DNA of 64,000 nucleotides from an uncultured Actinomycetota bacterium (GCA_963841395.1 CAWJCX010000043.1:228171-292170), one strand, 5' to 3'. Shown: positions 17,952 to 36,530, numbered from the stretch's first letter. Translations and numbers: made by a program. The notes: generated by a model from the sequence alone, not told the origin.

Positions 17952-18077
17952 ATGCCGGACATCGAGGACAGGGACCCCAAGGAAAGCCCGGAAGAGGTCG
18001 AGGTCGTCGCGCACACCGACGAAGAGGACGAAGAGCTGAACGCCGGCTGCACGTTCAACTCGTCGGCGCAACTGTAA
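17952..18077 (+). CDS. Putative RiPP precursor peptide (41 aa)
   Basis: MPDIEDRDPKESPEEVEVVAHTDEEDEELNAGCTFNSSAQL; GAAAGGG RBS; GC-rich third positions; directly upstream of the radical SAM gene. Confidence 0.8.
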   Translation: MPDIEDRDPKESPEEVEVVAHTDEEDEELNAGCTFNSSAQL

Positions 18078-18209
18078 GGACGGGTGACCCGGGCATCCGG
18101 CCTTCCTGACGGAGTTCTCCTAGGTCGCCGGGAAAGCCGGATGGCCTGGCCCGGCATTCGTCGTTCACCACCGTTGTCATCGGGGATCTGGAACCCTGCG
18201 GAGGTTTGC

Positions 18210-19397
18210 GTGACTCTGGAACACATCGGACAGCGCAGCGGGGCACGGGTCCTCGCCGGAAAGAACAACTACTGGTTCCTCGGCCCCGGCGGCATCGCCC
18301 GGCTCAAGTCCTCGCAGGTGACCCCGGAGGGGGCACTGCTCCCGCGCGCGGACCAGAAGCTGCGCGAATCCGGGCTCTACGACCCGCCGCCGGGTCACCT
18401 GTACTCGTTGACCGTGCTGACCAGTACCGACTGCAACCTGGGGTGCGGGTACTGCTTCCAGAACATCGGGGCGGACACGACAGGCGGCAACCGCCCGCCG
18501 CGGATCAAGCACGCGCGGCTCACCTCCGAGGACATCACCACGATCCTCGACTTCGCCGGCCGCCAGATGGCCGCGGTCGACCTGGACAAGCTCAGCATCC
18601 TGCTGTTCGGCGGCGAGCCGTTGCTCAACCCCCGCGGCGCCATCGAACTGCTCACCCGCGCGGCCGACTACGGGCTGGCGTCGGCGTGGATGATCTCCAA
18701 CACCACCCTGCTCACCCCGGAGCTGGCCAAGAACCTGTGGGACGCCAGGCTTCGCTACATCCAGGTCACCTTCGACGGCGACAAGCCCGAGCACGACCAG
18801 ATCCGGGTCCGGCGCTCCAACGGCGGGACCTTCGACACGATCGTGCGCAACATGGTCCGCGCCTCCGACGCCTCCCCGATGTCCTGGGCGCTGCGGGTCA
18901 ACGTCTCCCACCGCAACCACCGGGGGATCGACAATCTGCTCGACCGGCTCGCGGGCGCGCTGGACACCTCGCGCTGCACCATCTCCTTCGACCAGATCAG
19001 GGACATGGGCGTCGGCTACGCCAACGACCTCGAGCACACCCGCAACCTGTCGGCCTCCTTCGCGCACTGGCAGCAGCAGGCGCTCGAGCTCGGCTTCCGC
19101 GTGCCCCGGCCGGCCGCCAGCACCCCGTGCCGCACCTGCGGCCACGGCGACGGCCGCTACGGCGCGGTCGTGAACGCCGACGGCACCCTGTCCAGTTGCT
19201 GGGAGACCGCCGGGAGACCCGGCTGGGAGGTCGGCACGGCCGCCACCGGCTACCTGTCTCCCGAGGTCACTCGCGACCGCTGGATCTCCTGCGGGGACAT
19301 GTACGACCCCGCACCGGACGACGTGGAGGTGGCGGCGTTCCACGACGCCGTGGACGCCGCGCTGCTGGACTACCTCGCCGATACCGGACGTCTGTAG
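18210..19397 (+). CDS. Radical SAM protein with SPASM/twitch-like C-terminus
   Basis: CNLGCGYC, LFGGEPLL, C-terminal CRTC..NADGTLSSCWE..WISC; GGAGG before GTG 18210. Confidence 0.92.
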   Translation: MTLEHIGQRSGARVLAGKNNYWFLGPGGIARLKSSQVTPEGALLPRADQKLRESGLYDPPPGHLYSLTVLTSTDCNLGCGYCFQNIGADTTGGNRPPRIKHARLTSEDITTILDFAGRQMAAVDLDKLSILLFGGEPLLNPRGAIELLTRAADYGLASAWMISNTTLLTPELAKNLWDARLRYIQVTFDGDKPEHDQIRVRRSNGGTFDTIVRNMVRASDASPMSWALRVNVSHRNHRGIDNLLDRLAGALDTSRCTISFDQIRDMGVGYANDLEHTRNLSASFAHWQQQALELGFRVPRPAASTPCRTCGHGDGRYGAVVNADGTLSSCWETAGRPGWEVGTAATGYLSPEVTRDRWISCGDMYDPAPDDVEVAAFHDAVDAALLDYLADTGRL

Positions 19398-19399
19398 CC

Positions 19400-21490
19400 G
19401 TGCCACCGCGCCAGTACCCGGCGGCCGACCGCGAGGATCCCGGCGACGATCCGGTGGCCGATCCGTACCGCTGGCTCGAGGACGCCACCACACCCCGGAC
19501 GCTGCGCTGGACCGCCGAGCAGGACGCCCTCTTCCAGGCGGAGCGGGCGTCCTGGCCGGACGCCGACCGGTGGCACGCCCAGCTCGCCGCGCTGAGCGGG
19601 CTGGACCGCACCGGGACGCCGAAGGTCCGCGGCGAGCTGGTCTTCGGCCTGCGGCAGCGAGCCGGGCACGAGCAGCCGGTGCTGGTGGTGCGCGACGGGG
19701 CGGCCGAGCGGGTCCTGCTCGATCCGCGCGCCCTGGACCCGCTCGGGCGCACCACGCTGGAGGCCTGGCAGCCCTCGGTCGCCGGTGACCGGGTGGCCTT
19801 CCAGGTCTCCCGGGACGGCACCGAGGACTCGCTGCTGTACGTGCTCGACGTGGCCACCGGGCAGGTCGTCGACGGGCCGGTCGACCGGATCCGGGGCCGG
19901 ACGGTCGGCTGGCTGCCCGACGGCGAGTCGCTCTTCTACATCCGGTGCCTGCCGCCCGGCCCGGACGGCGGCGGGTCGCGCTACCACCGCCGGGTCTGGC
20001 TGCACAAGATCGGCTCCGCTCCGGACACCGACATCCTGGTGTTCGGCGAGGACCGGCCGAAGGCCCAGTTCTACAGCGTGGCCGTGACCGCGGACGGGCG
20101 CTGGCTGACCGTCACGGCCACCGAGGGCACCGCCCCGGGCACCGACGTCTACCTGGCCGACCTGACCGCGGGCGCACCGGAGCGGCCCGTCCTGCGCCCG
20201 GTCCAGGAAGCCGCGACCTTCCGCACCCGCGCGCACCTCGCGGCCGGCACCGGCCCGGCCGACGTGATGTGGCTGCGCACCGACCGCGACGCCCCGTACG
20301 GCCACGTCGTCGCCTGCACGCCGGCGAACCCCGGCGTGGACACCTGGCGGCCGGTGGTCGCCGAGCGCCCGGGCGTGGTGCTCACCGACTTCGCCGTGCT
20401 CACCGGACCCGGGCTCGCCCGGCCGCTCGGGCTGGCGTCCTGGCTGCGGCACTCGGTCTCCGAGATCACCGTGCACGACCTCACCGACGGCCGCCGCGTC
20501 ACCACGGTGCCGCTGCCCGGGGCGGGCACGGTGGGCGACCTCTCGGTGCGGCCCGAGGGCGGGCACGAGGCCTGGTTCGCCTACACCGACTTCGCCACCC
20601 CGCCGCAGGTCATGCACTTCGACGCCCGCACCGGGCTGACCAGCGTGCTGGCGCGGGCCGGCGACCGCCCCGGGGGCTACGGACTCACCGCCCACCAGGA
20701 GACGTTCATCTCCCGGGACGGCACCGCGGTGCGGATGTTCGTCGTCTCCGCCGCGGGCGTCCCGGACCGCCCGCGGCCGACGATCCTCTACGGCTACGGC
20801 GGTTTCGGCACCCCGGTCTCCGCGAAGTTCTCCGCCGAGGCCGTCGCCTGGGTGCGCGCCGGCGGGGTCTTCGCCGCCGCGTGCGTGCGCGGGGGTGGCG
20901 ACGAGGGGGAGCGGTGGCACGCCGCCGGGCGGGGCGAGCACAAGCAGAACAGCATCGACGACTTCGTCGCGGCCGCCGAGCACCTGGTCGCGACCAGGTG
21001 GACCGAGCCCGGCCGGCTCGGGATCATGAGCATCTCCAACGGCGGGCTGCTGGTCGGCGCCGCGCTCACCCAGCGCCCGGACCTCTACGCCGCGGCCGTG
21101 AGCATGTCCCCGCTGCTGGACATGCTCCGCTTCGAGCTGTCCGGGCTGGGCCCGAGCTGGGTGCCCGAGTACGGCAGCGCCGCGGACCCCGGCCAGCGAC
21201 GCACCCTGCTGTCCTACTCGCCCTACCATTGCGTGCGCCCGGGCACGGCGTACCCGGCGGTGCTGCTCACCGCCGCGGACGGCGACACGCGCGTCGATCC
21301 CTTGCACGCCCGCAAGATGTGCGCCGCCCTGCAGCACGCCACCGCCGGGGCGGGGCCGGTGCTGTTCTGGCTGGAACGCGGGGTCGGCCACGGCAACCGG
21401 GGCGCCTCGCGTCGGGTGGACCTCTATGCGACGGCCCTGGCCTTCCTCGGCGACCAGCTCGGCCTGCCCGCGCGCGAGGACGGGCCGTGA
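19400..21490 (+). CDS. Prolyl oligopeptidase (S9A) family protein
   Basis: DPYRWLED, LYGYGGF, VRGGGDEG..WH, SNGGLL, DTRVDP, GHG. Confidence 0.92.
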   Translation: MPPRQYPAADREDPGDDPVADPYRWLEDATTPRTLRWTAEQDALFQAERASWPDADRWHAQLAALSGLDRTGTPKVRGELVFGLRQRAGHEQPVLVVRDGAAERVLLDPRALDPLGRTTLEAWQPSVAGDRVAFQVSRDGTEDSLLYVLDVATGQVVDGPVDRIRGRTVGWLPDGESLFYIRCLPPGPDGGGSRYHRRVWLHKIGSAPDTDILVFGEDRPKAQFYSVAVTADGRWLTVTATEGTAPGTDVYLADLTAGAPERPVLRPVQEAATFRTRAHLAAGTGPADVMWLRTDRDAPYGHVVACTPANPGVDTWRPVVAERPGVVLTDFAVLTGPGLARPLGLASWLRHSVSEITVHDLTDGRRVTTVPLPGAGTVGDLSVRPEGGHEAWFAYTDFATPPQVMHFDARTGLTSVLARAGDRPGGYGLTAHQETFISRDGTAVRMFVVSAAGVPDRPRPTILYGYGGFGTPVSAKFSAEAVAWVRAGGVFAAACVRGGGDEGERWHAAGRGEHKQNSIDDFVAAAEHLVATRWTEPGRLGIMSISNGGLLVGAALTQRPDLYAAAVSMSPLLDMLRFELSGLGPSWVPEYGSAADPGQRRTLLSYSPYHCVRPGTAYPAVLLTAADGDTRVDPLHARKMCAALQHATAGAGPVLFWLERGVGHGNRGASRRVDLYATALAFLGDQLGLPAREDGP

Positions 21491-22674
21491 ACGTCCTGCT
21501 GTGCCCGCTCAGCGACGGCGGGTACCTCTACCCGGCGATCGCGGCCGGACGCGAGCTGGCCCGCCGCGGTCACGCGGTCAGCGCCGTCGGCCGGGCTCGG
21601 GCCGCCACCGTGCTCGCCGAGGCCGGCCTGCCGTTCGCGGCGCTGGCGGACTTCGGCGAACGGGCGGGGTTCTCGGCGGCGCGCTGGGCCCTCACCGGCA
21701 TGGAGCAGTACCGGGTCGTCCTGCGCGCGGCCACCCAGGCGCGGGCCGACCTGATCGTCACCTCGGTGCTCTGCCCCGGCGCCCTGGTCGCCGCCGAGGT
21801 GCTGGACCTCCCGGTCGTCGTGGTCGGCTTCGCGGCCCACCTGTGGGACTACCGGGCGGGCGGGGACGGCGACGTCCTGCGCGAGGCCCGGCGCAGGCGG
21901 ACCCTCGACACCGCCGGGCACCACGCCGCCCTGCGGGAGCGGGTCGGCCTGGCGCCGCGGCGGCACGCGGACCCGCAGAGCCCGCTGCTGGGTGCCGCGC
22001 TGCTGCTGCGCGGCGCGCCCGCCCTCGAGCACCCGGGCGCGACGCTGCCCGCCCGGGTACGGCACGTGGGGCCGTTGAGCTGGGAGCCGGCGGCCGACCC
22101 CGGCGAGCTCGACGAGGTCCGGGATGTCCTGGACCGCAACGGCAAACCGGTCGTCTACGTCCACCTGGGACGGTTCTTCGAGGGCACCAACCAGTGGCCG
22201 ATGCTGAACGCGGCCTTCACCGGCGGCTCGTTCCAGGCCGTCGTCGAGCGGGGCCGGTCGCGGGATCCGCGGCCCGCCCCGGGCGCGGACGTCGTGCTCG
22301 TGCACAAGCCGTGGATGGGCCCGCTGCTCGACCGCGCGGGTCTGGTGCTGACCAGTGGCACGTCGGCACCCGTGCTGGCCGCGCTGGTCCGCGGCCGCCC
22401 GCTCGGGGTGTCGCCCAACGGGGCCGAGCAGCCGCTGCTCGCGGCGGCGTGCGAGCGGGCCGGGGTGGCCGTGCGGGTGCCGCCCGTGGTCACCGGCGAC
22501 CCGGCCGCCCTGCTCCGCTCCGCCTGGCACGACCCCCGCCTGCGGGCGCGCGCCGGCGGCCTCGGTCGCGACCTGGCCACCGCCGGCGGCGCCGGGCGCG
22601 CCGCCGACGTGATCGAGCAGGTGGCGTCCGGTCGGATCGAGACCGCGTCCGCGTTCGGGAAAGGACGACGATGA
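21487..22674 (+). CDS. GT1/MGT-type glycosyltransferase
   Basis: N-terminal PLSDGGYLYP..AGRELARRGH, RHVGPL, KPVVYVHLG, LVLTSGT, PNGAEQ. Confidence 0.85.
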   Translation: MNVLLCPLSDGGYLYPAIAAGRELARRGHAVSAVGRARAATVLAEAGLPFAALADFGERAGFSAARWALTGMEQYRVVLRAATQARADLIVTSVLCPGALVAAEVLDLPVVVVGFAAHLWDYRAGGDGDVLREARRRRTLDTAGHHAALRERVGLAPRRHADPQSPLLGAALLLRGAPALEHPGATLPARVRHVGPLSWEPAADPGELDEVRDVLDRNGKPVVYVHLGRFFEGTNQWPMLNAAFTGGSFQAVVERGRSRDPRPAPGADVVLVHKPWMGPLLDRAGLVLTSGTSAPVLAALVRGRPLGVSPNGAEQPLLAAACERAGVAVRVPPVVTGDPAALLRSAWHDPRLRARAGGLGRDLATAGGAGRAADVIEQVASGRIETASAFGKGRR

Positions 22675-23600
22675 GCGGCACCACCGACGCCGGAACGCTC
22701 GCCCCGGCCGGCGACCTGTCCACCTGCGATGTCCTCAGTGGACTGTCCGCCGGGGCAGTGGGCTGGGTCGGCCGCAACCTGCCGTTCTTCGACCCGTTCT
22801 CGCCTGCCTCACCGCTGCCGGCGGCCAGGCGGGCCAAGGCGGTGCTGGAGCTGGCGGTGTTCTGCCACCGCTGGGCGAAGCTGCGACCCACGAGCGACCT
22901 GTTCGACCGGGCCGGCGCGCTGCTGCGGGGGATCTGGCGGCGCCCGGAGTTCCCGGTGCTGCTGGACACCCACGGCGGGCCATACGCCGACTCGCAGCGG
23001 CTGGTGTACCTCGCGCTCGCCCCCGACGACCACCGCGACGCCGCCCTGGCCCGGCTGAGCGACGGCTACCTGTCCCCACCGGGCAAGTCGGCGTACCTGC
23101 GGCTGGAGACCCGTTACTACGCGGACAAGGCGAACCTCGCGCACGGCATGGAGTCCTACCGGGAGCTCGCGGCGGGGAGTCTGCTCGCCCGGCCTCCCAC
23201 GCCGCCGGTGTCCACGAGCGACGCGTACACGATGACCCACACCGCCTTCTACCTCAGCGACTACGGCCACCTGCCCGTCGACCTGCCCGACGACACCCGC
23301 GAGCGGGCGCTCCGGGCCGTCGCCGCGCTGGTCGTCTCCTCGGCCCGCGAGGACCTGTGGGACCTGACCGGCGAGCTGCTCATCACGCTCGCCTGCCTCG
23401 GCGGCGACGTCACCGGCACGCCCGCGGGGCAGGCCGGCCTCCGCTGCCTGGCCGGCGCCCAGCTGCCCGGCGGGGCGATCCCGGGACGGTCGGCCGCCAG
23501 CGGGGTGTCGCCCGAGCTGCCGCCGGGCCAGTTCTTCCGCCGGGCCTACCACACCACGCTCGTCGCGGCCCTGGTCGGCATCGTCGCCGGGACGGGCTGA
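22671..23600 (+). CDS. DUF6895-like helical protein, paralog A
   Basis: KAVLELA, YTMTHTAFYLSDYG, WDLTGELL, FRRAYHTTLVA; family label recalled, not searched. Confidence 0.7.
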   Translation: MSGTTDAGTLAPAGDLSTCDVLSGLSAGAVGWVGRNLPFFDPFSPASPLPAARRAKAVLELAVFCHRWAKLRPTSDLFDRAGALLRGIWRRPEFPVLLDTHGGPYADSQRLVYLALAPDDHRDAALARLSDGYLSPPGKSAYLRLETRYYADKANLAHGMESYRELAAGSLLARPPTPPVSTSDAYTMTHTAFYLSDYGHLPVDLPDDTRERALRAVAALVVSSAREDLWDLTGELLITLACLGGDVTGTPAGQAGLRCLAGAQLPGGAIPGRSAASGVSPELPPGQFFRRAYHTTLVAALVGIVAGTG

Positions 23601-24955
23601 TGTCGATCCGGCAGCGGCTGGTGCACGGGGCTTTGATCAGCCCCGACTACGCCCGGCTCTGGGCCGGGCAGGCCGTGTCCGTCCTGGGCGACATGGTCTT
23701 CCTCACCACGCTGGTGCTGTGGGTGGGCACCGTGCTGGCCGAGGGGCAGCCGTGGGCGCCGGCGGCGGTGAGCGGCATCGTGGTCGCGACCGGCGCGGCG
23801 ATCCTGGTCGGCCCGATCGCCGGCACGCTGGTCGACCGGTGGGACAGCCGGCGCACCGCGCTCGGCGCCGACGTCGTCCGTGGTGTCCTGGCCGGGCTGC
23901 TGACCGCGGTGGTGACGTTCGTCCCGGTCGACGCCCTGCCAGTCGCGGTCTGGCTCGGGCTGATCTACCTGATCGTCTTCGGGCTCTACCTGAACAGCCA
24001 GTTCTTCCAGCCGGCCCGGTTCACCCTGATCCGGGACATCGTGTCCGGCGAGGTCGACCGCGCCCGGGCGGCGGGCATCGCGCAGGCGACCGGCCAGACC
24101 GTGATGATTGTCGGCCCACCGCTCGCCGCACCACTGATGTTCGGCGCCGGGGTGCAGTGGGCACTGCTGTTCAACGCGCTGTCCTACGGCGTCTCCTTCG
24201 TCGCGATCCGCTCGGTGCGGGCCAGAGCACCCGAGCCCGCACCGGAACCGCGGGGCGAAGCTGCGTCGGGCGTGCGCGCGGAGTTCGTGGCGGGCCTGAA
24301 GTTCTTCCGCGGCAACAGAACCCTGGTCACCCTGCTGTCCATCGCGGTGATCGGCCAGCTCGGGATCGCCCCGCTGACCACGCTGAACGTGTTCTTCCTG
24401 ACCGACAACCTGCACGCCTCGACCCAGCTGTTCGGCTACCTCGGCATGGCGCTCGGCGTGGGCGGGGTCCTCGGCGCGCTGTGCACCGGCCGGATGGTGC
24501 GCCTGCTCGGCGCGCGCACGGTCACCTGGGCCGGCATCGTCCTGCTCGGCGTCCTGCTGATCGCCTACTCCCGCCAGACCGCCTTCGGCGCCGGGCTGGT
24601 CCTGCTGTTCCTGCTCGCGATCCCGATGACCATGGCGAACACCGCCGTGGCGCCGCTGTTGCTCGGCGCCGCCCCACGGGAGTACGTCGGCCGGACGACC
24701 GCGGTGTTCAACCCGGTCAACCAGCTCACCGGCATGCTGGGCACCCTGGTGGCGGGCTGGCTGCTCAGCTCGCTGCTGCGGGGCTTCAGCGTCTCGCTGC
24801 TCGGCCTGCGGCTCGGGCCGGTCGACCTGATCCTCATGGTGGCCGGTGGGTTGATCGTCCTTTCCGGACTGTACGCACGGGTCGCGCTGCGGCAGGCCGC
24901 GGCCGCGGAGACGGCGGCCCAGGTCGAGAAGCCCGTGCCCGACACGGCGTCCTGA
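23600..24955 (+). CDS. MFS transporter (likely product export)
   Basis: YARLWAGQAVS, AGTLVDRWDSRR, many TM segments; TGATG coupling to the upstream gene. Confidence 0.9.
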   Translation: MSIRQRLVHGALISPDYARLWAGQAVSVLGDMVFLTTLVLWVGTVLAEGQPWAPAAVSGIVVATGAAILVGPIAGTLVDRWDSRRTALGADVVRGVLAGLLTAVVTFVPVDALPVAVWLGLIYLIVFGLYLNSQFFQPARFTLIRDIVSGEVDRARAAGIAQATGQTVMIVGPPLAAPLMFGAGVQWALLFNALSYGVSFVAIRSVRARAPEPAPEPRGEAASGVRAEFVAGLKFFRGNRTLVTLLSIAVIGQLGIAPLTTLNVFFLTDNLHASTQLFGYLGMALGVGGVLGALCTGRMVRLLGARTVTWAGIVLLGVLLIAYSRQTAFGAGLVLLFLLAIPMTMANTAVAPLLLGAAPREYVGRTTAVFNPVNQLTGMLGTLVAGWLLSSLLRGFSVSLLGLRLGPVDLILMVAGGLIVLSGLYARVALRQAAAAETAAQVEKPVPDTAS

Positions 24956-24960
24956 CCGCG

Positions 24961-26029
24961 TCAGCGCGGGGTGAGGAAGCCCAGCAGGTCCACCGGCGGC
25001 CCGGCGGGAAGGGCGTTCCGGTGCAGCTCGGCGAGCATCGCCGCGACCCCGGCCGTGACCGCGTCCGTGCCGGCCGCCCGCTCCGCCCACCGCCAGTCGC
25101 CGTCCGGGTTCACCTCGAGGAACACCGGTGTACCGGCCCGGACGAGGAAGTCGAACGCCCCGTAGCGCAGCGACATCGCGGCGGCGAGCACCCGGGTGGC
25201 GTCGACGACCGCCGCGGGCGGCGGGCACACCCGGACCCCGACCCGCTCCGGCGCGAGCCACGGGTCGGCGGGGGAGGACTTGTCCACCGCGAACCCGTGC
25301 ACCCGTCCGTCCAAAAAGTAGACCCGCAGCTCGACGTCGTGCTCGACGTACTCCTGGACGACCACCGGCGCCCCGGCGGGGGAGACCGCCGGCAGGTCCC
25401 GTCGCGCCACGACCGCGGGGAACCGGCCGGTCAGCAGGCCGGGCGTGGCCTCGGTGAAGTGGCGGTGGACGGCCTTGACCACCAGCCGCCGGCAGCCGAG
25501 GACCTCGCCCGCTCCCGCCAGGTCGGTGGTGACGACCGTGCGCGGCACGGCCACCCCGTACTGCCCGCGCGGTGCGCAGCTGGGCGAGCAGCCCGCGCGG
25601 CGCCGGTGCGAGGTCGACGACCGCGGTCGCGGCCAGCGCGGCGGCCGCCGCCTGCCACGACTCGCGCAGGAACAGGTCGGCGTCGGGATCGCCGGTCCCC
25701 TCGACCGCCAGGCCGGAGAAGTGCCTGGTCCAGCTCACCGTCGGCGCCACCCAGCCGGCCCCCGCGCGCACGGCGCCGGAGTCGGCGTCGATCAGCAGGC
25801 CGTCGAGCGCGTCGGCGTCGAGGCGGACCACCGGGATCCCCACCCGGCCGAGCAGCGCCCGCACGCCGTCGACGTCCTCGTCGCAGGTGCGGCTGAGCAC
25901 CAGCACCGCCGGCACGGGCCGGTCGCGGGTACCGGCGGACCCGGCCGGTGCCGCGGTGCGCGTGGTGCGGGGCCGGACGTCGACGACCCGGCCGGGGAAG
26001 CGGAAGCCGCCGCCCGGTGGCCCGGTCAC
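24961..26029 (-). CDS. RimK/MvdC-MvdD-like ATP-grasp ligase (one frameshift near 25565)
   Basis: N-part VLVLSRTCD..VVRLDAD in one frame; VPRTVVT, VVKAV, VQEYV, ELRVY, YGAFDF, FLEVNPDGDWRW in another; one extra base joins them. Confidence 0.8.
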
Positions 26030-27572: not shown

Positions 27573-30500
27573 CGCGCGCCTCCGTTCCGGCGCCGGCCGC
27601 GAGCCACGCGCGGGTCCGTTCGGCGAAGAGCACGGCGCCCTTGGCCTCGAAGTCCCGCAGCGCGGCCGAGCCCGCGCGCTCCGCGTCCCCCGCCCGCCCG
27701 GCCGCGCGGAGCACGACCGCCAGGTCGAAGGTCGTCGCCCCGGCCAGGCGCGGGTCGTCGGTCCCGTCGCCGAGCGCCCGGGCGGCGGTCGCGGCGTCGA
27801 TCGCCGCGGGGTGCCGTCCCGTGGCCGAGGCGATCCGGCCGCGCAGCGCGGTCGCGGCTATCCGCGCCCGCGTGCTGCTGACCTCCCGGCCGGCGCCGGC
27901 CCGGTCCAGCGCCTCGGCGGCGTCGTCGAGCCGGCCCTGCTCGAAGAGCGACCTGGCGATGAGCACCTCCACGTTCTGGGTGTCCGGGGCGTCCGCGCCG
28001 TTGCGCAGGATCTCCAGCGCGCGGCGGTAGCGGCCCTCAGCCCGGTCGTGCCGCCCGGCCAGCGCCTCCAGGTCGCCGCCCACCTTCAACGCGGCGGCCA
28101 TCGGCAGGTCGAGGTGGATCTCGTCGACGGACTCCTCCAGCATCGCGAGCCTCGTCCGCGCGGCCGGGAGGTCGCCGGCCAGCGCGAGCAGCGTCGTCCA
28201 GGTCACCAGCACCGGCAGCAGCAGCATCCGGTTCGCGGCGAACTGGTCGGCCAGCGACTCGCACAGCGCCAGGCCGGCCTCGACCGGGGTCGGCGTCCAC
28301 TGCGCCAGCTCGCAGATCGCGCTCAGCAGCCAGTCCGCCTCGTGGCCGTCCGCCATGGCGCGGGCGCGGTCCAGCGCGAGCCGCAGCTCCGCGTCCGCCG
28401 CGGCGGTCCGCTCCTCGACGAGGTGCAGGTGGGCCTGGAGGCTGTGGAACCGGCACCAGCTCAGGTCGTCGCCAGGGTGGCGCTCGAGGTCCGCCCGGAT
28501 CGCGGCGGCCTCAGCGGCCACCCGGACCGGCGGCACCAGGCCGAGCCGCAGCGAGACGAGGCAGCGCTGGATCGCGCACACGGTGCGGTTGCGCCGGTCG
28601 TCCGGCAGCGCGGCCTCGGCGTGGGCCAGCGCGGCCAGGCACCGCGGCGCGTCCCGCAGCCACAGCCCCGCGTCGCAGACGTGCAGCGCGAGCGTGGTGT
28701 GCCGGGCGTCGCCGGACGCGACCAGCTCCCGGGCCCGCTCCAGCAGCTGGACCGCGGCCGGCAGGTCCTTGCGGTCCAGGGCGCGCATGCCCTCGGCGGT
28801 CAGCGCGTCGGCCGCCGCGGACGCCAGGCCGGGCAGCGTCGCGTCACCCGGCCGCAGGTCCTTGCTCAGCGCCCAGGCCTGCTCCACGTGGTAGGCGACG
28901 GCCATCCCGTCCCCGCTCTCGCCGTACCAGCGGGCCACGAACTCGTGCCACCGCTGCCGGCGGGTCTTCGGGGTGAACTCGTAGGCCGTCTCGCGCAGCA
29001 GCGGCTGGGCGAACCGGATCGTCCCGGAGCGACCGCGCGCCAGCACGCGGCGGCGGACCAGCATGGCGACCAGGTCGGCCGCCGCCGGCTCGCTGATCCC
29101 GGCCTCCGCCGCCATCGCGTGCAGTACCTCGCCGGTGAAGTCGCGCCCGATGATCGCCGCCAGCTCCACCACGGTGCGCTCCTGGCCGGGGAGCTGGTCC
29201 AGCCGGGCGCCGAGCAGCGCGTGGATCGTGGGCGGGGTCCGCACGTCCGGGTCGGCCTCGGTGACGACGTCCATGATCAGCTCGGCGAACAGCGGGTTCC
29301 CGTCGCACTGCGCCGCCACGCGGTCGAGGGTGTCGGTGTACTCGTGCGCGTACACCTCCTCCCGCAGGGCCAGGTGGGCCACCAGCTCGACGCTCTGCGC
29401 CCGCGTCATCGGCACCAGCTCGAGGGTCATCGCGGAGGTCTTGCCGCCGCCCCAGGTCGGCCTGGTCTCCAGCAGCTCGCCGCGGGCCACGCACAGCATC
29501 AGCACCGGGACGTCGGTCAGCCGGCTCGCCACGTCGTCGACGAGGTCGAGCAGCGTCTCCTCCGCCCAGTGCAGGTCCTCCCACACCATGACCACCGGGC
29601 GGCCCTGCCCGAGCGTGTCGAGCAGCGACCGGGCCGCCCACGCGATGTCGGCGGTGCCGACCGTCGCCGTGGCGGCGCCGGTCACCGTCGCCAGCGTGCG
29701 GGCGGCCAGCCCGTCGGCGCCCAGCAGCCCGGCCAGGGCGGGCCAGCCGCCGGGAAAGGCGGCGAGGATGTCGGCCAGCGGCTTGTAGGTGATGCCCCGC
29801 CCGTAGGGGGAGCAGCGGCCGGCCAGCACCAGCACCTCGCCGTCGGGCAGCGTGCCGAGGAACTCCTGGACCAGCCGCGACTTGCCGATCCCCGGTACGC
29901 CGAGCACGGTGACCAGGCACAGCTGCCGGTCGCGGATCATCCGCCGGTAGCTCTGCCGCAGGTCCAGCAGCTCGTCCTCGCGGCCGATGAACGGCGCGGG
30001 CGCGGTCCGCTCGTCGTCGACCGCGACGGTCTCGGCGACCCGGAACGCCGGAACGGGACTCGCCTTTCCCTTCAGCCGCAACGGCGCGACCGGCTCGATG
30101 CCGACCTGGTGCCGGATCATCGAAGCGGTGTCGGCGTCGAGGAGGATGCCGCCCGGCGGTGCGGCGTTCTGCAGCCGGCTCGCGGTGTTGCCCGCGTCGC
30201 CGACGACCCGGAAGTCGCCGTCGGCCGTGGTCAGCACGACCACGTCACCGGTGCACACCCCGCAGCGGGCGTCGAGCGTGATCCCGTAGCGGGCGGTGAA
30301 CTCGGCGCTGAGCCGGCGCACCGCGGCCAGTGCCGCCACGGCCGCGCGCACCGCCCGGACCGCGTCGTCCTCGTGCGCGACGAGGGCGCCGAACGCGGCC
30401 ATCACCGCGTCGCCGATGAACTTCTCCACCACCCCGCCGTGGTCGGTGATGGAGGCCGAGCAGGCCGCGAAGTACTGGTCCATGACCTCCCGCAGCGGCT

Positions 30501-30672
30501 CCGGGTCCAACCGCTCGGCGAGCTGGGTGGACCCCACCACGTCCACGAACAGGACCGACACCTTCTTGCGCGCCTCCCGCGGCGCCGGGAGGGCCTGCAG
30601 CGCGGCGCCGCAGTTGACGCAGAACCGGTCGGTCTCCGCGGTGCGGGCCGCGCACGCGGGGCACGTCAGCAC
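27565..30672 (-). CDS. Zn-ribbon - class III adenylate/guanylate cyclase - AAA/STAND ATPase - TPR-like protein
   Basis: CPAC..FCVNCG, LFVDVVGST, KFIGDAVM, GDAGNTASRLQ, GVPGIGKS, WEDLHWA, GNPLF; GGAGG before GTG 30672. Confidence 0.9.
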   Translation of the reverse strand: MLTCPACAARTAETDRFCVNCGAALQALPAPREARKKVSVLFVDVVGSTQLAERLDPEPLREVMDQYFAACSASITDHGGVVEKFIGDAVMAAFGALVAHEDDAVRAVRAAVAALAAVRRLSAEFTARYGITLDARCGVCTGDVVVLTTADGDFRVVGDAGNTASRLQNAAPPGGILLDADTASMIRHQVGIEPVAPLRLKGKASPVPAFRVAETVAVDDERTAPAPFIGREDELLDLRQSYRRMIRDRQLCLVTVLGVPGIGKSRLVQEFLGTLPDGEVLVLAGRCSPYGRGITYKPLADILAAFPGGWPALAGLLGADGLAARTLATVTGAATATVGTADIAWAARSLLDTLGQGRPVVMVWEDLHWAEETLLDLVDDVASRLTDVPVLMLCVARGELLETRPTWGGGKTSAMTLELVPMTRAQSVELVAHLALREEVYAHEYTDTLDRVAAQCDGNPLFAELIMDVVTEADPDVRTPPTIHALLGARLDQLPGQERTVVELAAIIGRDFTGEVLHAMAAEAGISEPAAADLVAMLVRRRVLARGRSGTIRFAQPLLRETAYEFTPKTRRQRWHEFVARWYGESGDGMAVAYHVEQAWALSKDLRPGDATLPGLASAAADALTAEGMRALDRKDLPAAVQLLERARELVASGDARHTTLALHVCDAGLWLRDAPRCLAALAHAEAALPDDRRNRTVCAIQRCLVSLRLGLVPPVRVAAEAAAIRADLERHPGDDLSWCRFHSLQAHLHLVEERTAAADAELRLALDRARAMADGHEADWLLSAICELAQWTPTPVEAGLALCESLADQFAANRMLLLPVLVTWTTLLALAGDLPAARTRLAMLEESVDEIHLDLPMAAALKVGGDLEALAGRHDRAEGRYRRALEILRNGADAPDTQNVEVLIARSLFEQGRLDDAAEALDRAGAGREVSSTRARIAATALRGRIASATGRHPAAIDAATAARALGDGTDDPRLAGATTFDLAVVLRAAGRAGDAERAGSAALRDFEAKGAVLFAERTRAWLAAGAGTEARDG

Positions 30673-30853
30673 TGTGACCTCCGCGTGTGCCCGTTCTCCG
30701 GTTGTGTCCCCAGAATCGATTTCCCGGGTTCTGAAATGTTCAACGGGCGGTTCGGCAACGGTTAAACGCCAGGACGCACGGCATCGACACGAGGCGGCGG
30801 GGAGATCACGCTTGTTCCCGAGCCGTCCCCCGCGACCCGTTGGGAGGCCATCG

Positions 30854-31978
30854 ATGCCGGAGGCCATCGCCTACCGCACCGGCACCTACCGTTCGGTCGA
30901 CCCGGCACGCACCTGGGAGCGGGTGGAGCCGATGCTCGGCCGCTTCGGCATCACCAGGGTCGCCGACCTCACCCGGCTCGACGACATCGGGCTGCCGGTC
31001 CACGCGGCCTACCGGCCGACCAGCCTCACCTACGCGGTCAGCATGGGCACCGGCGTGACCGTGGCGCAGTCCAGGGTCAGCGCGGTGATGGAGAGCATCG
31101 AGATCTGGCACGCCGAGAACCTCCGGCTGCCGGTCGCCGCCCGCGCTCCGGCGGCCGCCCTCGACCTCGGCTACGACGTGCGGGGCCTGAACCTGGCGCC
31201 GCGGTCGCCGCTGACCTCCCACGTCGTGCTGGACTGGGTGCGCGGGCACGGCCTGCTCACCGGCCGCGAGATGCTGGCCCCCGTCGACGCCATCCGGCTC
31301 GACGGCACCGCACCCCGCGACTGGGCCACCGTGCTCTTCCGGGCCACCAGCGAGGGCATGGCCACCGGCAACACCGAGGCCGAAGCCGTGCTGCACGGCC
31401 TTTTCGAGCTGATCGAGCGGGCGAGCCTGGCCGGCCACCGGGACCGCGAACGGCGCTACGTCGACCCGGCGACCTGCCGGGACCCGGTGACCACCCGTAT
31501 CCACGACGCGCTGGTCGCGGCGGACTGCACCGTGACCGTCCGCGACGTCACCGGGTCCACCGGGCTGCCCTCCTACGTGGCCACCGTCTGGTCGGTCGAC
31601 GTGCCGATGCGCTGCGCCGGGTTCGGCTGCCACGTCCAGGGGGAGATCGCGCTCGGCCGGGCGATGAGCGAAGCGGTCCTGACCCGGCTGGCGGCGATCT
31701 CCGGCGCCCGCGACGACATCGACGGCGTGGTGTACCGCGAGATGGCCGAGCCGGTCGTGCCCGCCGACCGGGCCGATCTGCGCGAGCGCGACGGCTGGGC
31801 CGGCTGGATCGACGACGGCGACCTGCGCTCGGTGATCCGCCACTGCGCGTCGCTCGTCGCGTCGGCCACCGGTTGCGAGCCGTTCATGGTCCGGCTGGGT
31901 CACGACGACATCGGCATCCCCGCGGTCAAGGTGTTCACCCCGGGCCTGCGGGCCCTCGGCCGGACGGGACCGTCATGA
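30854..31978 (+). CDS. ycaO: YcaO-like protein (TfuA-associated type)
   Basis: GITRVADLTRLDDIG, SAVMESIE..HAE, ELIER, ISGARDD, VKVFTPGL. Confidence 0.88.
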   Translation: MPEAIAYRTGTYRSVDPARTWERVEPMLGRFGITRVADLTRLDDIGLPVHAAYRPTSLTYAVSMGTGVTVAQSRVSAVMESIEIWHAENLRLPVAARAPAAALDLGYDVRGLNLAPRSPLTSHVVLDWVRGHGLLTGREMLAPVDAIRLDGTAPRDWATVLFRATSEGMATGNTEAEAVLHGLFELIERASLAGHRDRERRYVDPATCRDPVTTRIHDALVAADCTVTVRDVTGSTGLPSYVATVWSVDVPMRCAGFGCHVQGEIALGRAMSEAVLTRLAAISGARDDIDGVVYREMAEPVVPADRADLRERDGWAGWIDDGDLRSVIRHCASLVASATGCEPFMVRLGHDDIGIPAVKVFTPGLRALGRTGPS

Positions 31979-33291
31979 GCGCCTGCACCGTGTTCGTCGG
32001 GCCGACGCTGCCGCGCACCCGGGTCGCCGAGCTCCTGCCCGAGGCGCGGATCCGGCCACCGGTGCGCCACGGCGACCTGCTGCGGCTCGACGCCGGCCGC
32101 GGTGACACCGTCCTGATCATCGACGGGCTGTTCCTCCAGACCGCCTCGGTCCGCCACCGCGAGATCCTCTACCTGCTCGACCGCGGCGTCACGGTGGCCG
32201 GCAGCTCCAGCATGGGGGCGTTGCGCGCGGCGGAGCTGTGGCAGTACGGCATGCGCGGGTACGGGGAGGTGTTCCGGCTCTACCGCGACGGGGAGATCGA
32301 CGGCGACGACGAGGTGGCCATCGTGCACGGCACCGCCGAGGACGGCTACCGCGCCTACAGCGACCCGGCGGTCAGCATCCGCGTCGCGCTGCGGGACGCG
32401 ACCGCCGCCGGAGTGCTCGACCCTGGCGAGGCCGAGCAGCTGCTCGCCGACGTCATCGCCACGCCGTTCCGGTCGCGCAGCTTCCGGGCCCTGGAGCGGC
32501 GCATGCCGGCGGAGACCGCGCGACGGTTCCTGGCCTGGCGCTCGGCGCACGACACCGACGTGAAGGCGGCCGACGCCCGGGTGTTGCTGGCCGCGACCGC
32601 CGCCGGCCTTCTCCCGGCAGACCCTCGGGACGAGCCGGCCCACAACGTGCACACCTGGGTCTTCGACACCTGGGAGCACCAGTACCACGGCGGTTCCGGT
32701 CCCGATGTCGACGAGGATGTCGACGAGTGGGTGTCCGACGCCGACGCCGACACCGCGATCCGCCTGTTCCACCCGGGCTTCCGGGACAGCTACCGCCACC
32801 ACGTCCTGTCCAGGATCGCCGGGCTGTCCCCGGACCACCCCGCGGTCGTCGACCGCGCGCTCGCGGTCGCCCGGGCCAGGGGACTGCACACCGGGGCGCC
32901 CGGTGGCTGGCTCACCGCACGCGACCTCGCCGCGCCGCCGGAAGAGGCGCTGGCCCGCCTGCTCGTGCGGGCCTTCGGCCGCGCGCACCACTGGCCCCCG
33001 ACCAGGTGGGACCTGCCGCCGTCGCTGCGGACCGAGCGGGCAATGGCCGCCGGTCGCGCCCTCGTCCTAGCGGCGCGTCGCCACGCGGGACCGCCGGCCG
33101 ACGCCGCCGAGGAGACCGACCGCGCGCTCGCCGCCGCCTGGGGCTGCGACCCTGGCGAGCTGGAGGCGCAGGCCTGGGACCGCGGGATCCCCGACCTGGC
33201 CACGTTGCGCCGGATCGCCGCGCAGTTCGTCCGCTACGTGCGGGCCGAGGAGACCATCACCGCCATGAGGGCGGTCATGAGCGTCGTCTGA
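31975..33291 (+). CDS. tfuA: TfuA-like protein with C-terminal extension
   Basis: VFVGPTL, PPVRHGDL, IIDGLF, HREIL, SSMGALRAAEL, DDEVA, DVKAADA; ATGA overlap with ycaO. Confidence 0.88.
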   Translation: MSACTVFVGPTLPRTRVAELLPEARIRPPVRHGDLLRLDAGRGDTVLIIDGLFLQTASVRHREILYLLDRGVTVAGSSSMGALRAAELWQYGMRGYGEVFRLYRDGEIDGDDEVAIVHGTAEDGYRAYSDPAVSIRVALRDATAAGVLDPGEAEQLLADVIATPFRSRSFRALERRMPAETARRFLAWRSAHDTDVKAADARVLLAATAAGLLPADPRDEPAHNVHTWVFDTWEHQYHGGSGPDVDEDVDEWVSDADADTAIRLFHPGFRDSYRHHVLSRIAGLSPDHPAVVDRALAVARARGLHTGAPGGWLTARDLAAPPEEALARLLVRAFGRAHHWPPTRWDLPPSLRTERAMAAGRALVLAARRHAGPPADAAEETDRALAAAWGCDPGELEAQAWDRGIPDLATLRRIAAQFVRYVRAEETITAMRAVMSVV

Positions 33292-34127
33292 TACGCCTTG
33301 CGGAAGCGCTCGGTCGACGTCGCCGACGGGCCGGGCAGCAGCCGGCTCGCCGCACCCGGGATCGCCCCGGACGCGTCCTGGACCTCGGCGAGCATCCGGA
33401 TGGCCGCGGCCCCCGACGGCGTGGCGGCCGGGTCCAGGCCGAGGCAGAACTGCGCGAGCAGGAACTTGGCCACGTTGTCCCACTCGTCGAGCCGGACGTA
33501 GTGCGCGGTCAGCTCCACCACCAGCCGCCGCACCCGATCGACCTCGGCGTCGTCCAGGTCCGGGGCCCGCAGGCCGAAGTCGCTGAGGTAGAAGACGGTG
33601 TGCGCGATCGTGCACGCGTCGGCGTCGGTCACCGGCAGCGCCGTGCTCCGCCCGGCGAGCAGGCTCGCCGCGTACAGCTCGCGGTAGTCCCCGGCACAGT
33701 GCGCGGTCCCGGCCAGCTCCGCGTAGTAGGCGATCTCCAGGCGCAGGTAGGGCGACCCGGCGGCGGGGGAGAGGTAGCCGTCCTCGGTGAGCCCGGCGAG
33801 CACCGCGCGGCTCCGCTCGGCTGGCGCCGGCGCCAGGCCGCAGTACATGAGGCTGAACTGCCGGGCGTAGCGCCGGTCGGTGCCGATGACCGCAGGCAGG
33901 TCGGGCCGCGGCCACACGCGCCGGACGAGCGCGCCGACCTCGGCGGCGCCCGGGTCGTCCGGCCGGACCCGGTGCCAGCAGCGCAACAGCCCCGCCAGCT
34001 GGATGAACGCCTTCGCCCGGGGTACCGCGGGCAGCTCGGCCCGCCCCGCCGGGGAGTCGAGGTAACCGGCGTGGTTGCGCACCCAGCCGCAGCTGCCCGC
34101 GCGGAGCCGCTGGAGGTCAGTGGACAC
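33234..34127 (-). CDS. DUF6895-like helical protein, paralog B
   Basis: KAFIQLA, SPYLRLEIAYY, CTIAHTVFYLSDFG, WDNVAKFLL, FRKAYQTTL; clearly homologous to 22671-23600. Confidence 0.7.
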   Translation of the reverse strand: MSTDLQRLRAGSCGWVRNHAGYLDSPAGRAELPAVPRAKAFIQLAGLLRCWHRVRPDDPGAAEVGALVRRVWPRPDLPAVIGTDRRYARQFSLMYCGLAPAPAERSRAVLAGLTEDGYLSPAAGSPYLRLEIAYYAELAGTAHCAGDYRELYAASLLAGRSTALPVTDADACTIAHTVFYLSDFGLRAPDLDDAEVDRVRRLVVELTAHYVRLDEWDNVAKFLLAQFCLGLDPAATPSGAAAIRMLAEVQDASGAIPGAASRLLPGPSATSTERFRKAYQTTLMTALMAVMVSSART

Positions 34128-35922
34128 CGGTACCTCCCGGGAGGGCGGTCGCCGCGGCCATCTCCCGGGCGTAGGCGTAGGTGAGCGGCGGCAGCTCGTA
34201 GCGGACCGCGTGGGCGAGCATCTCGGTGCCCGGCACTGTGACGAGGCTGGCCTCGAGCAGGATCTCGAGGATCCGCACCGCCGTGTGCTCGTCGGTGTCG
34301 AGGACGGTGACCGCCTCGGTCAGCGTGAACACCGCCGCGGGCAGCCCGCCCAGCCGGGCTATCCCGGTGCGTGCGGGCGACGGCAGCTCGCTGATCGCCT
34401 CGGCCAGCCGCAACCGGACGGTCGTGTCGCTCGCGCTCAGCTCGTCGAGCAGGGACGGGATGTCGGTCATCCGCTCGGCGTACTCGCGCAGCGGCACGTG
34501 GTGCAGCAGCGCCAGCCGCTCGGCCACCAGGCGCAAACCCAGCGGCAGCAATCCGGTCGCCCGGACGATGCGCTCGGCCGACGTCGCGTCCGCGGCGACC
34601 CGGTCGAGGCCGATCGTCTGCCCGAGGAACTCGAGCGCCGCGGCGACCGTGAGCGGTGGGACCGCCAGCCGGCAGGCACCTTCCAGGCCGGCGAGCCGGG
34701 ACCGCGCGGTGATGACCACGACGCTGTCGCCGGACTCCGGCAGCAGCGGCCGGACGTCGGACTCGCGCCGCGCGTCGTCCAGGACGACCAGGGCGCGGTG
34801 CTGTGCCAGCCATTCCTGCCAGCTCGCCAGCCGGTCCTCCCGCCGCCCGGGCGGCACCGGGGCAGGCGGCACGACCTCCGCGACGACCTGCTCGAGCGGG
34901 CGTGGCCGCCCCTCGGCGCCGTGCAGCCGGACGAAGAAGCGGCCGCCGGGGAAGCGGTCGCCGAGCTGGTGCGCGGTGTGGACCGCGAGCGCCGTCTTGC
35001 CCGCACCCAACGGACCGTGCACGACGACCAGCCGGTGCCGCCCGTGGCCGACGGCGTCGGTCAGCTGCCGGGTGACCTCGACGCGCCCGGCGAAGTTCGG
35101 CGGTTCCCAGGGCAGCCGGCACGGCGGCCGCAGCGCCGACCGGATCGCGGGAACCTCGCCGCGCAGCACCGAACGGTAGAACTCCTCGAGCGCGTAGCTC
35201 GGCGACAGCCCGAGCTCACGGGCCAGCGAGCGGCGCAGCTCGTCGTAGACCGCCAGGGCCTCTGTCGGTCGGCCGGCCTGGCACAGCGCGGTCATCTGCA
35301 GGATGCGCAGCCGCTCCCGCAGCGCGTGGTGCTGGGCGACCTCGGTGAGCCGCTCCACCACGCTCGCCCCGCGACCCGTCTCGATCTCGGTCTCGGCCCA
35401 GTCCTCCACGGCGGCGAGGAACTGCCGGTCCAACCGCTCCGCGGCGGCGGCGAGCAGCGGCACGTCCCGCATGCCGTCGAGCGCCCGGCCCCGCCACAGG
35501 GTGAGCGCGCCCGCCAGCGCCTCGGCCGCGGCCGAGGCCGACTCGACCTGGCGCAGCCGGCCGGCGTCGCGCACCAGCTGCTCGAAGCGCAGGGCGTCCA
35601 GCGCGGCCGGGTCGAGGTGCAGCACGTACCCGCCGTTCTGGTGACTGATCCGGGGACCTTGTGCCGCACGGGTCATCCCGCGCAGGGTCGACAGGTAGAC
35701 CTGGATGTTCTTGCGCGCCGTCCGTGGTGGGGAGCCGAGCCAGAGCGCCTCGGTCAGCGCGTCGACCGAGACCAGGGAGTTCGCGTTGCACAGCAGGGCG
35801 GCGAGCACGACCTGTTGCTTGCGCGGTCCGGCGTCCACGGAGTTGCCGTGCGCTTCGACCCGCATGGGTCCGAGGATCCGGAAACGTAGACCTGGCTGGC
35901 TGCCCGTGTACTGGCCGACCAC
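34117..35922 (-). CDS. SARP/AfsR-family regulator (wHTH-BTAD-NB-ARC, no TPR tail)
   Basis: FRILGPM, LWRGRAL, ELGLSPS, GPLGAGKT, VVLDDA, GLLPLGL. Confidence 0.9.
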   Translation of the reverse strand: MVGQYTGSQPGLRFRILGPMRVEAHGNSVDAGPRKQQVVLAALLCNANSLVSVDALTEALWLGSPPRTARKNIQVYLSTLRGMTRAAQGPRISHQNGGYVLHLDPAALDALRFEQLVRDAGRLRQVESASAAAEALAGALTLWRGRALDGMRDVPLLAAAAERLDRQFLAAVEDWAETEIETGRGASVVERLTEVAQHHALRERLRILQMTALCQAGRPTEALAVYDELRRSLARELGLSPSYALEEFYRSVLRGEVPAIRSALRPPCRLPWEPPNFAGRVEVTRQLTDAVGHGRHRLVVVHGPLGAGKTALAVHTAHQLGDRFPGGRFFVRLHGAEGRPRPLEQVVAEVVPPAPVPPGRREDRLASWQEWLAQHRALVVLDDARRESDVRPLLPESGDSVVVITARSRLAGLEGACRLAVPPLTVAAALEFLGQTIGLDRVAADATSAERIVRATGLLPLGLRLVAERLALLHHVPLREYAERMTDIPSLLDELSASDTTVRLRLAEAISELPSPARTGIARLGGLPAAVFTLTEAVTVLDTDEHTAVRILEILLEASLVTVPGTEMLAHAVRYELPPLTYAYAREMAAATALPGGTGVH

Positions 35923-35923
35923 G

Positions 35924-36112
35924 CTAGGCGAGTTTGACGTCGACGTGCCCCTCGACCTCGGGATCGGACACAGCGTCCAGCCGCCGCTTCACCGAGTTGA
36001 GCACCGCAACCTCGTCCGCGGTGAGCCGCGCGAGCACCCCGCGCTGTTCCGAGGAGAGCAGATCGACCGGATTCCCCGCCGCACGCAGCGCGGAAAGCGC
36101 GTCGAAATTCAT
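35924..36112 (-). CDS. Small RiPP-associated protein resembling the 'aroma-sacti cluster domain' (62 aa)
   Basis: MNFDALSALRAAGNPVDLLS.EQR.VL..L..DEV.VLNSVK.RLD....EVEGH; AAGGAG RBS; family label recalled. Confidence 0.75.
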   Translation of the reverse strand: MNFDALSALRAAGNPVDLLSSEQRGVLARLTADEVAVLNSVKRRLDAVSDPEVEGHVDVKLA

Positions 36113-36302
36113 GTTGGGCTCCTTTGTCGTCAGGCCGAGCGCCCCAGGAATCAGATACCCACCAGACATCGACGTCGAGTGCGAGTTTGCCCAACTCGCA
36201 GCTAACGCCGGACAAGCTTCTCTCCGCGGTATCTGCCCAGTCAATCGGCCGAATGGCCGGACCCGTGACGCGCCAATGGCTCCGCGCGCGGGACCAACAT
36301 CA

Positions 36303-36530
36303 TTACCGGGCTGCACCATTTGTCGCCCACGTAATTGGTGAACAATTGACGATCGCTTTCGGTTGGTCGGCCGGTGCCGTGGGCTCCGCCGGCATCTCGG
36401 CGCGGTCTTCGGCCTCCCCGAGCTCCTCCTCGACGGTGGCGTCGACCCGCGACGAGCGCCGGTCGCCGCGTTGCGATGCCTTCTCAGCGTCCTGCAACAC
36501 GGTGAACGTCACGACCATCTCTTGGACCAT
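36303..36530 (-). CDS. Small acidic peptide, possible second precursor (75 aa)
   Basis: GGGAGGG RBS just upstream of ATG; acidic middle and C-terminal AIVNCSPITWATNGAAR. Confidence 0.5.
   Translation of the reverse strand: MVQEMVVTFTVLQDAEKASQRGDRRSSRVDATVEEELGEAEDRAEMPAEPTAPADQPKAIVNCSPITWATNGAAR

Follow-up and report, generated by a model that had tools for sequence, protein, structure and literature searches.

A candidate thioether-forming RiPP gene cluster joined to a portable SARP-linked cassette in an uncultured Actinomycetota bacterium

NxxcB, PapB, and QhpD are thioether-forming radical S-adenosylmethionine (SAM) enzymes, and QhpE is the partner of QhpD. Here we describe a locus in a 64,000-nucleotide stretch of DNA, hereafter called the window, from an uncultured Actinomycetota bacterium (GCA_963841395.1 CAWJCX010000043.1:228171-292170), in which another radical SAM enzyme accompanies a set of genes fitting the biosynthesis of a peptide that is ribosomally synthesized and then modified post-translationally (RiPP); coordinates are positions in this stretch. 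Parts of the locus recall described systems. StsA of Streptomyces sparsogenes is a sactipeptide with three Cys-Gly hairpin sactionines (PMC10288494), and the branch 6 ATP-grasps of Makarova 2022 lie beside SPASM radical SAM enzymes, adenylate cyclases, and YcaO-TfuA, with products unassigned (PMC8939145). Glycosyltransferases and some radical SAM enzymes were found near YcaO-TfuA pairs in a survey of such pairs (PMC8120280), S8 leader peptidases of the AmyP type go with a (T/S/A)EVE motif in class III lanthipeptides (PMC10885120), and a DUF6895 protein is called a lasso-peptide epimerase in a title (Shi et al., ACS Catal 2026). The window holds one real gene cluster, not two unrelated ones, and we favor, with moderate confidence, the view that it is built from two modules that can be exchanged, with a separate peptide as the likely substrate of each and with the chemistry proposed below, under a single type of SARP-controlled promoter.

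Frame analysis combined with family scans (Pfam, NCBIfam), by which the genes were called, confirmed the gene order, strands, and families given in a preliminary description made from the sequence alone, as well as the compactness of the operon, in which adjacent genes overlap or abut, the plus-strand run being mostly overlapping. The YcaO and TfuA genes, farther on, overlap by 4 bp. A minus-strand run encoding a nucleotide cyclase, an S8 protease, a GAF protein, and an ATP-grasp ligase converges on the plus-strand operon that begins with the gene of precursor peptide A. That the two halves belong together, as had been proposed, is borne out by another genome (G401), in which all 15 genes occur in identical order with 65–81% identity, and by a 6.7-kb contig from a different soil run that covers 30401–36357, from the cyclase gene to the peptide B gene; the same enzymes, in changed order, are found at a further locus (L070). 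The pair of DUF6895 paralogs does link the halves, because the distant copy 2 of the window is orthologous to a copy that is sited between the glycosyltransferase and radical SAM genes elsewhere. In a sample of 60 loci of about 20 kb each, centered on radical SAM homologs picked from matches in the Streptomyces family and the Thermocatellispora order, an MFS protein was encoded in 54 (many just 25–31% identical), the cyclase in 51, S8 in 51, SARP in 50, GAF in 49, the glycosyltransferase in 47, peptide B in 41, prolyl oligopeptidase (POP) in 36, ATP-grasp in 29, DUF6895 in 23 (22 of them with both copies), and YcaO together with TfuA in 1. The cyclase, S8, GAF, and SARP genes were within 10 kb of the radical SAM gene in 49–51 of the 60 loci.

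A further link is provided by two SARP-type operators, missed by the preliminary description, which precede the peptide A gene and the cyclase operon, respectively. Each comprises WACCG repeats at 0, +11, and +33, followed after 8 bp by a −10-like box predicted from the sequence. SARP promoters have direct repeats at a spacing of 11 or 22 bp, with 8 bp between the last one and the −10 box (PMC10936776), and both sites in the window match this 11/22-bp spacing and 8-bp gap. An operator scoring 15–18 of 18 stands before the precursor gene in 24/24 loci with two DUF6895 genes, the window included. The pattern was derived from 11 upstream regions among which was the window's own, so that its recovery of the site before peptide A is circular, while the second site, before the cyclase operon, was found by it independently. 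When positions starting with WACC were counted across the 8.26-Mb source genome (an assembly 74% complete), scores of at least 16 occurred at just two sites, those ahead of the two operons. Both operons are therefore likely under one SARP-controlled promoter type.

The division into two modules is suggested by what happens in genomes that lack the radical SAM enzyme. Among 80 such genomes, drawn at even steps, 17 had the aroma-sacti domain of peptide B above the cut-off, and the cyclase, S8, and GAF genes were all present in 14 of the 15 aroma-sacti loci fetched from them. These cassettes stand beside lanthipeptide, azole, or other radical SAM enzymes; scanning of 26 neighboring proteins identified RamC-type lanthipeptide synthetases at two loci, other radical SAM enzymes at four, and YcaO enzymes at two. 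The neighboring precursors carry EVEAH leaders, and several of the loci also have the same SARP-type operator. The block of peptide B, cyclase, S8, GAF, and SARP is a portable cassette. Cassette and radical SAM operon fall on separate contigs in four genomes. All four combinations of presence and absence of DUF6895 and ATP-grasp occur, and the type of cassette changes three times on the radical SAM tree, which indicates that the modules have been reshuffled. Separation of the halves in other genomes, named in the preliminary description as a finding that would speak against it, was thus found in part, the cassette occurring without the radical SAM gene or on another contig. The EV..H motif that was noticed in both peptides is real and family-wide (EVVAH in peptide A and EVEGH in peptide B), but the portability of the cassette and the tendency of the ATP-grasp to follow peptide B suggest that it marks the substrates of the cassette, not one pathway.

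The relation between the ATP-grasp and peptide B is seen in the short tail that follows EVxxH in peptide B. With the tail states scored by hand and loci without a visible tail excluded, the tail contained Lys in 38/38 scored cassettes with an ATP-grasp and was of a Gly-Gly-aromatic type in 27/27 without one, which is suggestive of a tie between the ATP-grasp and the Lys of peptide B, rather than peptide A. The assignment of the ATP-grasp to the MvdC/D type cannot be maintained, since an intact ortholog (L001) scored 65.1 against 425 for MvdC, 39.8 against 475 for MvdD, and 79.5 against 350 for SAV_5884. The S8 protease has its catalytic triad conserved in 59 aligned proteins and reaches 94.7 bits with the QhpE model (cut-off 165); the motif context is E-EVE and P-EVE in the peptides of the window and A-EVE for many homologs. 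As a separate observation, L123 and L128 have three tandem aroma-sacti peptides with Gly-Gly/Ala-x-x-Trp/Phe tails, and no maturase was recognized among the proteins scanned there.

The radical SAM protein scored 52.2 bits with PF04055 (cut-off 29.5), and C75, C79, and C82 are invariant (30/30). Four invariant C-terminal Cys would be enough for one auxiliary Fe-S cluster of the SPASM/Twitch kind, with no match to Pfam SPASM at E 0.01. Its nearest solved structures, by Foldseek, are the thioether-forming radical SAM enzymes 5WGG/5WHY, and it reaches none of the curated maturase families, the best NCBIfam score being 115.3 bits versus 525 among the 25 models shown. Precursor A belongs to a family with an EVxAH-type leader, an acidic spacer, and a Cys core, found at about 70 loci, some with tandem repeats or multiple genes; the search was filtered on Cys, and a separate unfiltered search found Cys in all family precursors (that of L003 was identified by eye). 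Twelve family precursors were scanned with NCBIfam, and none matched a relevant model. The core follows Cys-x-x-(Asn/His/aromatic): in 101 distinct Cys-centered segments, obtained after removal of six entries judged spurious or secondary, the residue at +3 was N, H, F, Y, or W in 81%, compared with 3% at +1, 5% at +2, 34% at +4, and 3% at +5. Three cores terminate precisely at +3, and several precursors with two Cys repeat the Cys-to-(+3) unit. This preference leads us to predict a four-residue thioether ring, in which the enzyme would bond the sulfur of Cys to the +3 residue (Asn here). Attachment at the β carbon is most likely, because the favored side chains would stabilize a radical there. 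Among the relatives, L049, L052, L054, L057–L059, L005, L087, and L088 have multi-core precursors with three to six copies of leader motif plus core, and L076 has a row of eight separate precursor genes. A hairpin 3′ of the peptide A gene was considered as an element and rejected, being no better than shuffles (z −1.34).

This radical SAM family is common. Among 8000 scored proteins, 650 were relatives at E 1e-60 or better, in Streptomyces, Kitasatospora, Actinoallomurus, and Microbispora, and the family is present in 67/401 genomes sampled from the taxonomic family to which a Streptomyces record belongs, about one-sixth of this streptomycete-family sample, and in 19/301 sampled from the order to which a Thermocatellispora record belongs. 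It occurs in 8/401 genomes of the window's own order and 9/301 of its family (this genome counted in both) and in none of 13 from its own genus, which suggests that it spread by patchy transfer. The cluster is a richly equipped member of this common, undescribed family, joined to the portable cassette. As no curated model, close solved structure, or description was found for so common a family, the corresponding class of natural products may go unseen.

The DUF6895 pair is a distinctive part of the first module. In a quick maximum-likelihood tree of 56 proteins, two mirror clades of 25 were formed, and all 25 two-copy loci hold one member of each. The residues E60, Y186, H190, E235, and H294 are found in copy 1 and in all six single-copy proteins, and are kept in 93, 95, 102, 95, and 93, respectively, of 102 full-length single-domain representatives, while in 25/25 members of the copy 2 clade four of these five invariant positions are occupied by Gln, Cys, Lys, and Gln. 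A structural model of copy 1 (pLDDT 92.6) is an (α/α)6 barrel that aligns with squalene-hopene cyclase (Z 15.5, rmsd 3.7 over 248 aligned residues) and cellobiose 2-epimerase (Z 14.2, rmsd 4.6 over 270), a shared fold that shows no function; no solved DUF6895 relative was found by sequence. From the pattern of residues kept and lost, copy 1 is likely an active epimerase and copy 2 likely its degenerate, noncatalytic partner, kept alongside it, which would be the simplest reading of the pair. A C-x-x-N-(N/S/H)-(S/A/R) core is present at 27/29 DUF-bearing loci and 0/36 others. Apart from the pair, many distant DUF6895 proteins of about 600 residues (P0261–P0377) have an additional 300-residue C-terminal region; their interpretation as tandem fusions was not supported, the second halves scoring just 1.5–6.4 bits.

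The place of YcaO-TfuA in the pathway was only partly upheld. The pair is present and adjacent in the window, and YcaO is closer to the thioamide-forming than to the azoline model. TfuA is encoded in 19/80 genomes bearing the radical SAM gene, but next to that gene in only 1/80 (G1074) besides the window and G401. In G1074, YcaO and TfuA are 72% and 61% identical to those of the window and lie between the glycosyltransferase/DUF6895 and radical SAM genes; these three cases have two gene orders. YcaO-TfuA is a real but rare accessory. No core feature sets the three TfuA-bearing loci apart from the others, and no core residue was correlated with the glycosyltransferase or YcaO-TfuA. As for the glycosyltransferase, GT-B family 1 enzymes usually have a catalytic His, and 51/52 homologs have Tyr or Phe at that position (21487–21540 in the window), hinting at an unusual acceptor.

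Other explanations of the locus have to be weighed against the two-module view. Adjacency of two unrelated clusters, through chance or mis-assembly, might be imagined in a 74%-complete genome with a frameshifted ATP-grasp gene and with modules that are found apart, but this is scarcely credible and already largely refuted by the gene order in G401, the bridging contig, the co-occurrence in 49–51 of 60 loci, the shared operator, and the orthology of the DUF6895 copies. The preliminary description saw one hybrid pathway on one peptide, in which all maturases, including the ATP-grasp and YcaO-TfuA, modify peptide A, and peptide B is a mere helper. In line with this, all the genes are together here, in G401, and in L070 (a stretch that was fetched without peptide B), the ATP-grasp gene is the last of a single codirectional run with the radical SAM gene at 16 loci, peptide A offers Ser and Asp/Glu as possible partners for a linkage by an ATP-grasp, and YcaO-TfuA lies between the glycosyltransferase/DUF6895 and radical SAM genes in L070. 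We nevertheless regard it as improbable: an ATP-grasp can be present or absent where the peptide A cores are nearly identical (L040 versus L045), the ATP-grasp accompanies the cassette on other contigs or beside unrelated maturases, and the cassette type, which changes three times on the radical SAM tree, changes once on the S8 tree. The idea of a RiPP cluster is itself supported, but with the ATP-grasp following the tail of peptide B, not the core of peptide A, and with the cassette present at 14 of 15 loci fetched from genomes without this radical SAM enzyme, one hybrid pathway on one peptide is not supported.

Given the two-module architecture, the chemistry might still differ from that proposed. 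The radical SAM enzyme might link sulfur to an α carbon (sactionine) or to an aromatic ring, or oxidize Cys, a set of options that we hold to be possible but unlikely; the best NCBIfam score falls far short of its cut-off, anaerobic sulfatase maturase and TigE were also ranked high by Foldseek, and the +3 residue varies widely, yet the favored Asn, His, Tyr, and Phe all have an sp2 carbon beside the β carbon, a feature for which a backbone-directed reaction would presumably have no use, and in Asn there is no ring to be linked. It is equally doubtful, in our judgment, that peptide B only resembles a leader and is really a small regulatory protein, for example an S8 inhibitor, a decoy, or an adaptor for SARP or the cyclase. 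The 52-residue helical domain of peptide B shows good conservation, at most loci its gene lies directly against that of the cyclase or SARP, and true precursors with Cys cores (L085, L086, and L121) also have this domain as their leader; however, the tail is short and hydrophobic and has two types that track the ATP-grasp, which suits a core released by processing more than a decoy. Several observations weigh against the chemistry that we prefer. The radical SAM protein is just 16–17% identical to the solved thioether enzymes, 11/101 segments have a +3 residue outside N/H/F/Y/W/D/Q, and Trp is also frequent at −1 (46/101). The best fold matches of DUF6895 are terpene cyclases (Z 15.5), helical barrels scoring high from architecture alone, the match between DUF6895 and the Asn-Asn-Ser core amounts to two independent pairs and is not statistically significant, and a nearly identical precursor has Gly-Ala replacing the Ser-Ser after Asn. 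Likewise, the match between the Lys tail and the ATP-grasp comes down to one change in the S8 tree (one independent pair) and is not significant, and a one-base frameshift near 25563 interrupts the ATP-grasp gene as assembled here. The extra base is absent from contigs of related strains in 4/4 soil runs, and intact 355-residue relatives exist; the frameshift may stem from faulty assembly or be a loss that happened recently.

Under the two-module reading, the pathway could proceed as follows. In the first module, the radical SAM enzyme would form the Cys-to-(+3) thioether, closing a four-residue ring in peptide A, DUF6895 copy 1, probably together with noncatalytic copy 2, would invert one core residue to the D form, and the glycosyltransferase would attach a sugar; YcaO-TfuA would install a thioamide only in the few clusters having the pair. 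Cleavage behind EVxAH would fall to S8, removal of the remaining leader to POP, and export of the product to the MFS protein. In the second module, a further S8 cut, behind EVEGH in peptide B, would release its short hydrophobic tail, the Lys of which the ATP-grasp would acylate or cyclize, and the processed tail would act as input to the cyclase-AAA-TPR sensor, GAF, and SARP, by which both operons would be turned on. The product is thus likely a small sulfur-bridged, sugar-bearing peptide, and peptide B is likely processed as a signal. A broader generalization is more tentative and, in our estimation, falls short of an even chance: an undescribed portable signaling cassette (a leader-mimic peptide, a cytoplasmic S8, a cyclase-AAA-TPR sensor, GAF, SARP, and an optional ATP-grasp) might serve many RiPP classes via an EVxAH code as both leader peptidase and on-switch, and might here drive a new and very common class, in which thioether rings of four residues are glycosylated and a DUF6895 pair of catalytic enzyme and pseudoenzyme installs a D-residue. 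If the cassette is such a general switch, the EVxAH motif and the operator could be used to locate RiPP precursors across classes, and expression of SARP or addition of a short peptide might wake silent clusters.

The features of the locus are collected in Table 1. The last of them, a 75-residue open reading frame (ORF), was earlier counted among the small peptides of the system, which is probably wrong: it is without the EVxAH motif and forms a singleton cluster, it had no match in G401 or the 60 radical SAM loci and no usable Atlas match, its sole match (E = 0.007) is at an unrelated locus, and the similarity in two close relatives ends at 36357, inside it. A nonribosomal peptide synthetase region occupies 1–16354, with condensation domains, a 1062-residue A-T-C protein, an iron-containing redox enzyme, and a stand-alone adenylation protein; the coding phase switches very frequently from 1 to about 10600, and the region is decayed or poorly assembled there. 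On the other side, 36757–42985 has lower GC content and encodes a small secreted-looking protein and FG-GAP repeat protein(s), apparently in pieces (37169–39930), with a second large SARP-NB-ARC-TPR regulator at 40019–42985. Of the relatives, L070 (1456–18645) has three different precursors, each with its own operator, in addition to POP, the glycosyltransferase, both DUF6895 copies, YcaO-TfuA, and an intact ATP-grasp.

Table 1. Positions of the predicted features of the locus in the window.
Feature	Position	Strand	Remarks
SARP-type operator and −10 box, precursor operon	17844..17895	+	TACCG, TACCG, AACCC repeats at 0, +11, +33; TACGGT 8 bp past last repeat
Precursor peptide A, 41 residues	17952..18077	+	EVVAH leader, acidic spacer, core with Cys-Thr-Phe-Asn
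Radical SAM maturase	18210..19397	+	PF04055; CxxxCxxC (C75, C79, C82) and C-terminal C307, C310, C330, C361
POP (S9)	19400..21490	+	PF02897 and PF00326; S546, D629, H664 conserved
GT-B glycosyltransferase, macrolide-family-like	21487..22674	+	TIGR01426 below cut-off; invariant C-terminal Glu-Gln
DUF6895 copy 1	22671..23600	+	PF21836, 212.6 bits (cut-off 23.8); E60, Y186, H190, E235, H294 kept
MFS exporter (predicted)	23600..24955	+	Family scans
ATP-grasp ligase, frameshifted near 25563	24961..26029	-	355 residues in relatives; start placed from relatives
Stand-alone GAF protein	26026..26691	-	Family scan
Short S8 protease	26691..27572	-	D67, H106, S250, N190 conserved
Zinc ribbon-class III nucleotide cyclase-AAA-TPR protein	27565..30672	-	Start placed from operator, ribosome site, and L019 ortholog
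Second SARP-type operator, before cyclase-S8-GAF-ATP-grasp operon	30712..30763	-	Also in L019
YcaO	30854..31978	+	PF02624, 188.1 bits; thioamide-forming model E 1e-46, azoline model E 1.6e-21
TfuA-like protein	31975..33291	+	PF07812, 137.7 bits
DUF6895 copy 2	33234..34127	-	216.8 bits; 41% identity with copy 1; four family-invariant positions hold Gln, Cys, Lys, Gln
SARP activator	34117..35922	-	BTAD and NB-ARC-like domains
Peptide B, 62 residues	35924..36112	-	Aroma-sacti domain NF045560, 80.8 bits (cut-off 30); EVEGH, six-residue Lys-containing tail; no Cys
75-residue ORF	36303..36530	-	Not conserved; probably outside the system

The preliminary description knew of no characterized cluster with this set of genes, and none was found in the open literature, nor was any description of the radical SAM family or the cassette, with DUF6895 appearing only in reference lists; subscription chemistry journals were mostly outside the search. 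The closest known systems each share a part of the locus. Ranthipeptides and sactipeptides (5WGG/5WHY) are alike in the radical SAM core, the C-terminal Cys cluster, the Cys core of the precursor, and the nearest solved fold, whereas here the family cut-offs are not reached, and the Cys-x-x-(Asn/His/aromatic) unit, the EVxAH leader, the glycosyltransferase, the DUF6895 pair, and POP are without a counterpart that was found. The aroma-sacti domain of peptide B also begins the StsA-related precursors, but peptide B reaches 30.3 bits versus 75 with the StsA-related NF045559 and has no Cys, and peptide A has one Cys in contrast with the three hairpin sactionines of StsA. The branch 6 loci of Makarova 2022 have neighbors similar to those of the ATP-grasp in the window and mostly no identified precursor. 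The lasso-peptide epimerase of Shi et al., as named in the title of that work, is of the same Pfam family and also belongs to a RiPP cluster, while here there are no lasso enzymes and there are two paralogs, one without four invariant residues. Thioamitides and other YcaO-TfuA RiPPs likewise have adjacent YcaO and TfuA, a pair that is a rare accessory here, and the dehydrazole system is a different one (PMC10676384). The S8 protease resembles QhpE, below the cut-off, and, like the AmyP-type proteases, would use an EVE-containing leader motif; in this case the motif is EVxAH, and S8 travels with the cyclase, GAF, SARP, and peptide B across RiPP classes. Judged from these similarities in sequence, the cluster is assigned to no curated maturase family and is neither an MvdC/D graspetide nor a StsA-type sactipeptide, and it would work like a radical SAM thioether RiPP system with QhpE/AmyP-like removal of the leader.

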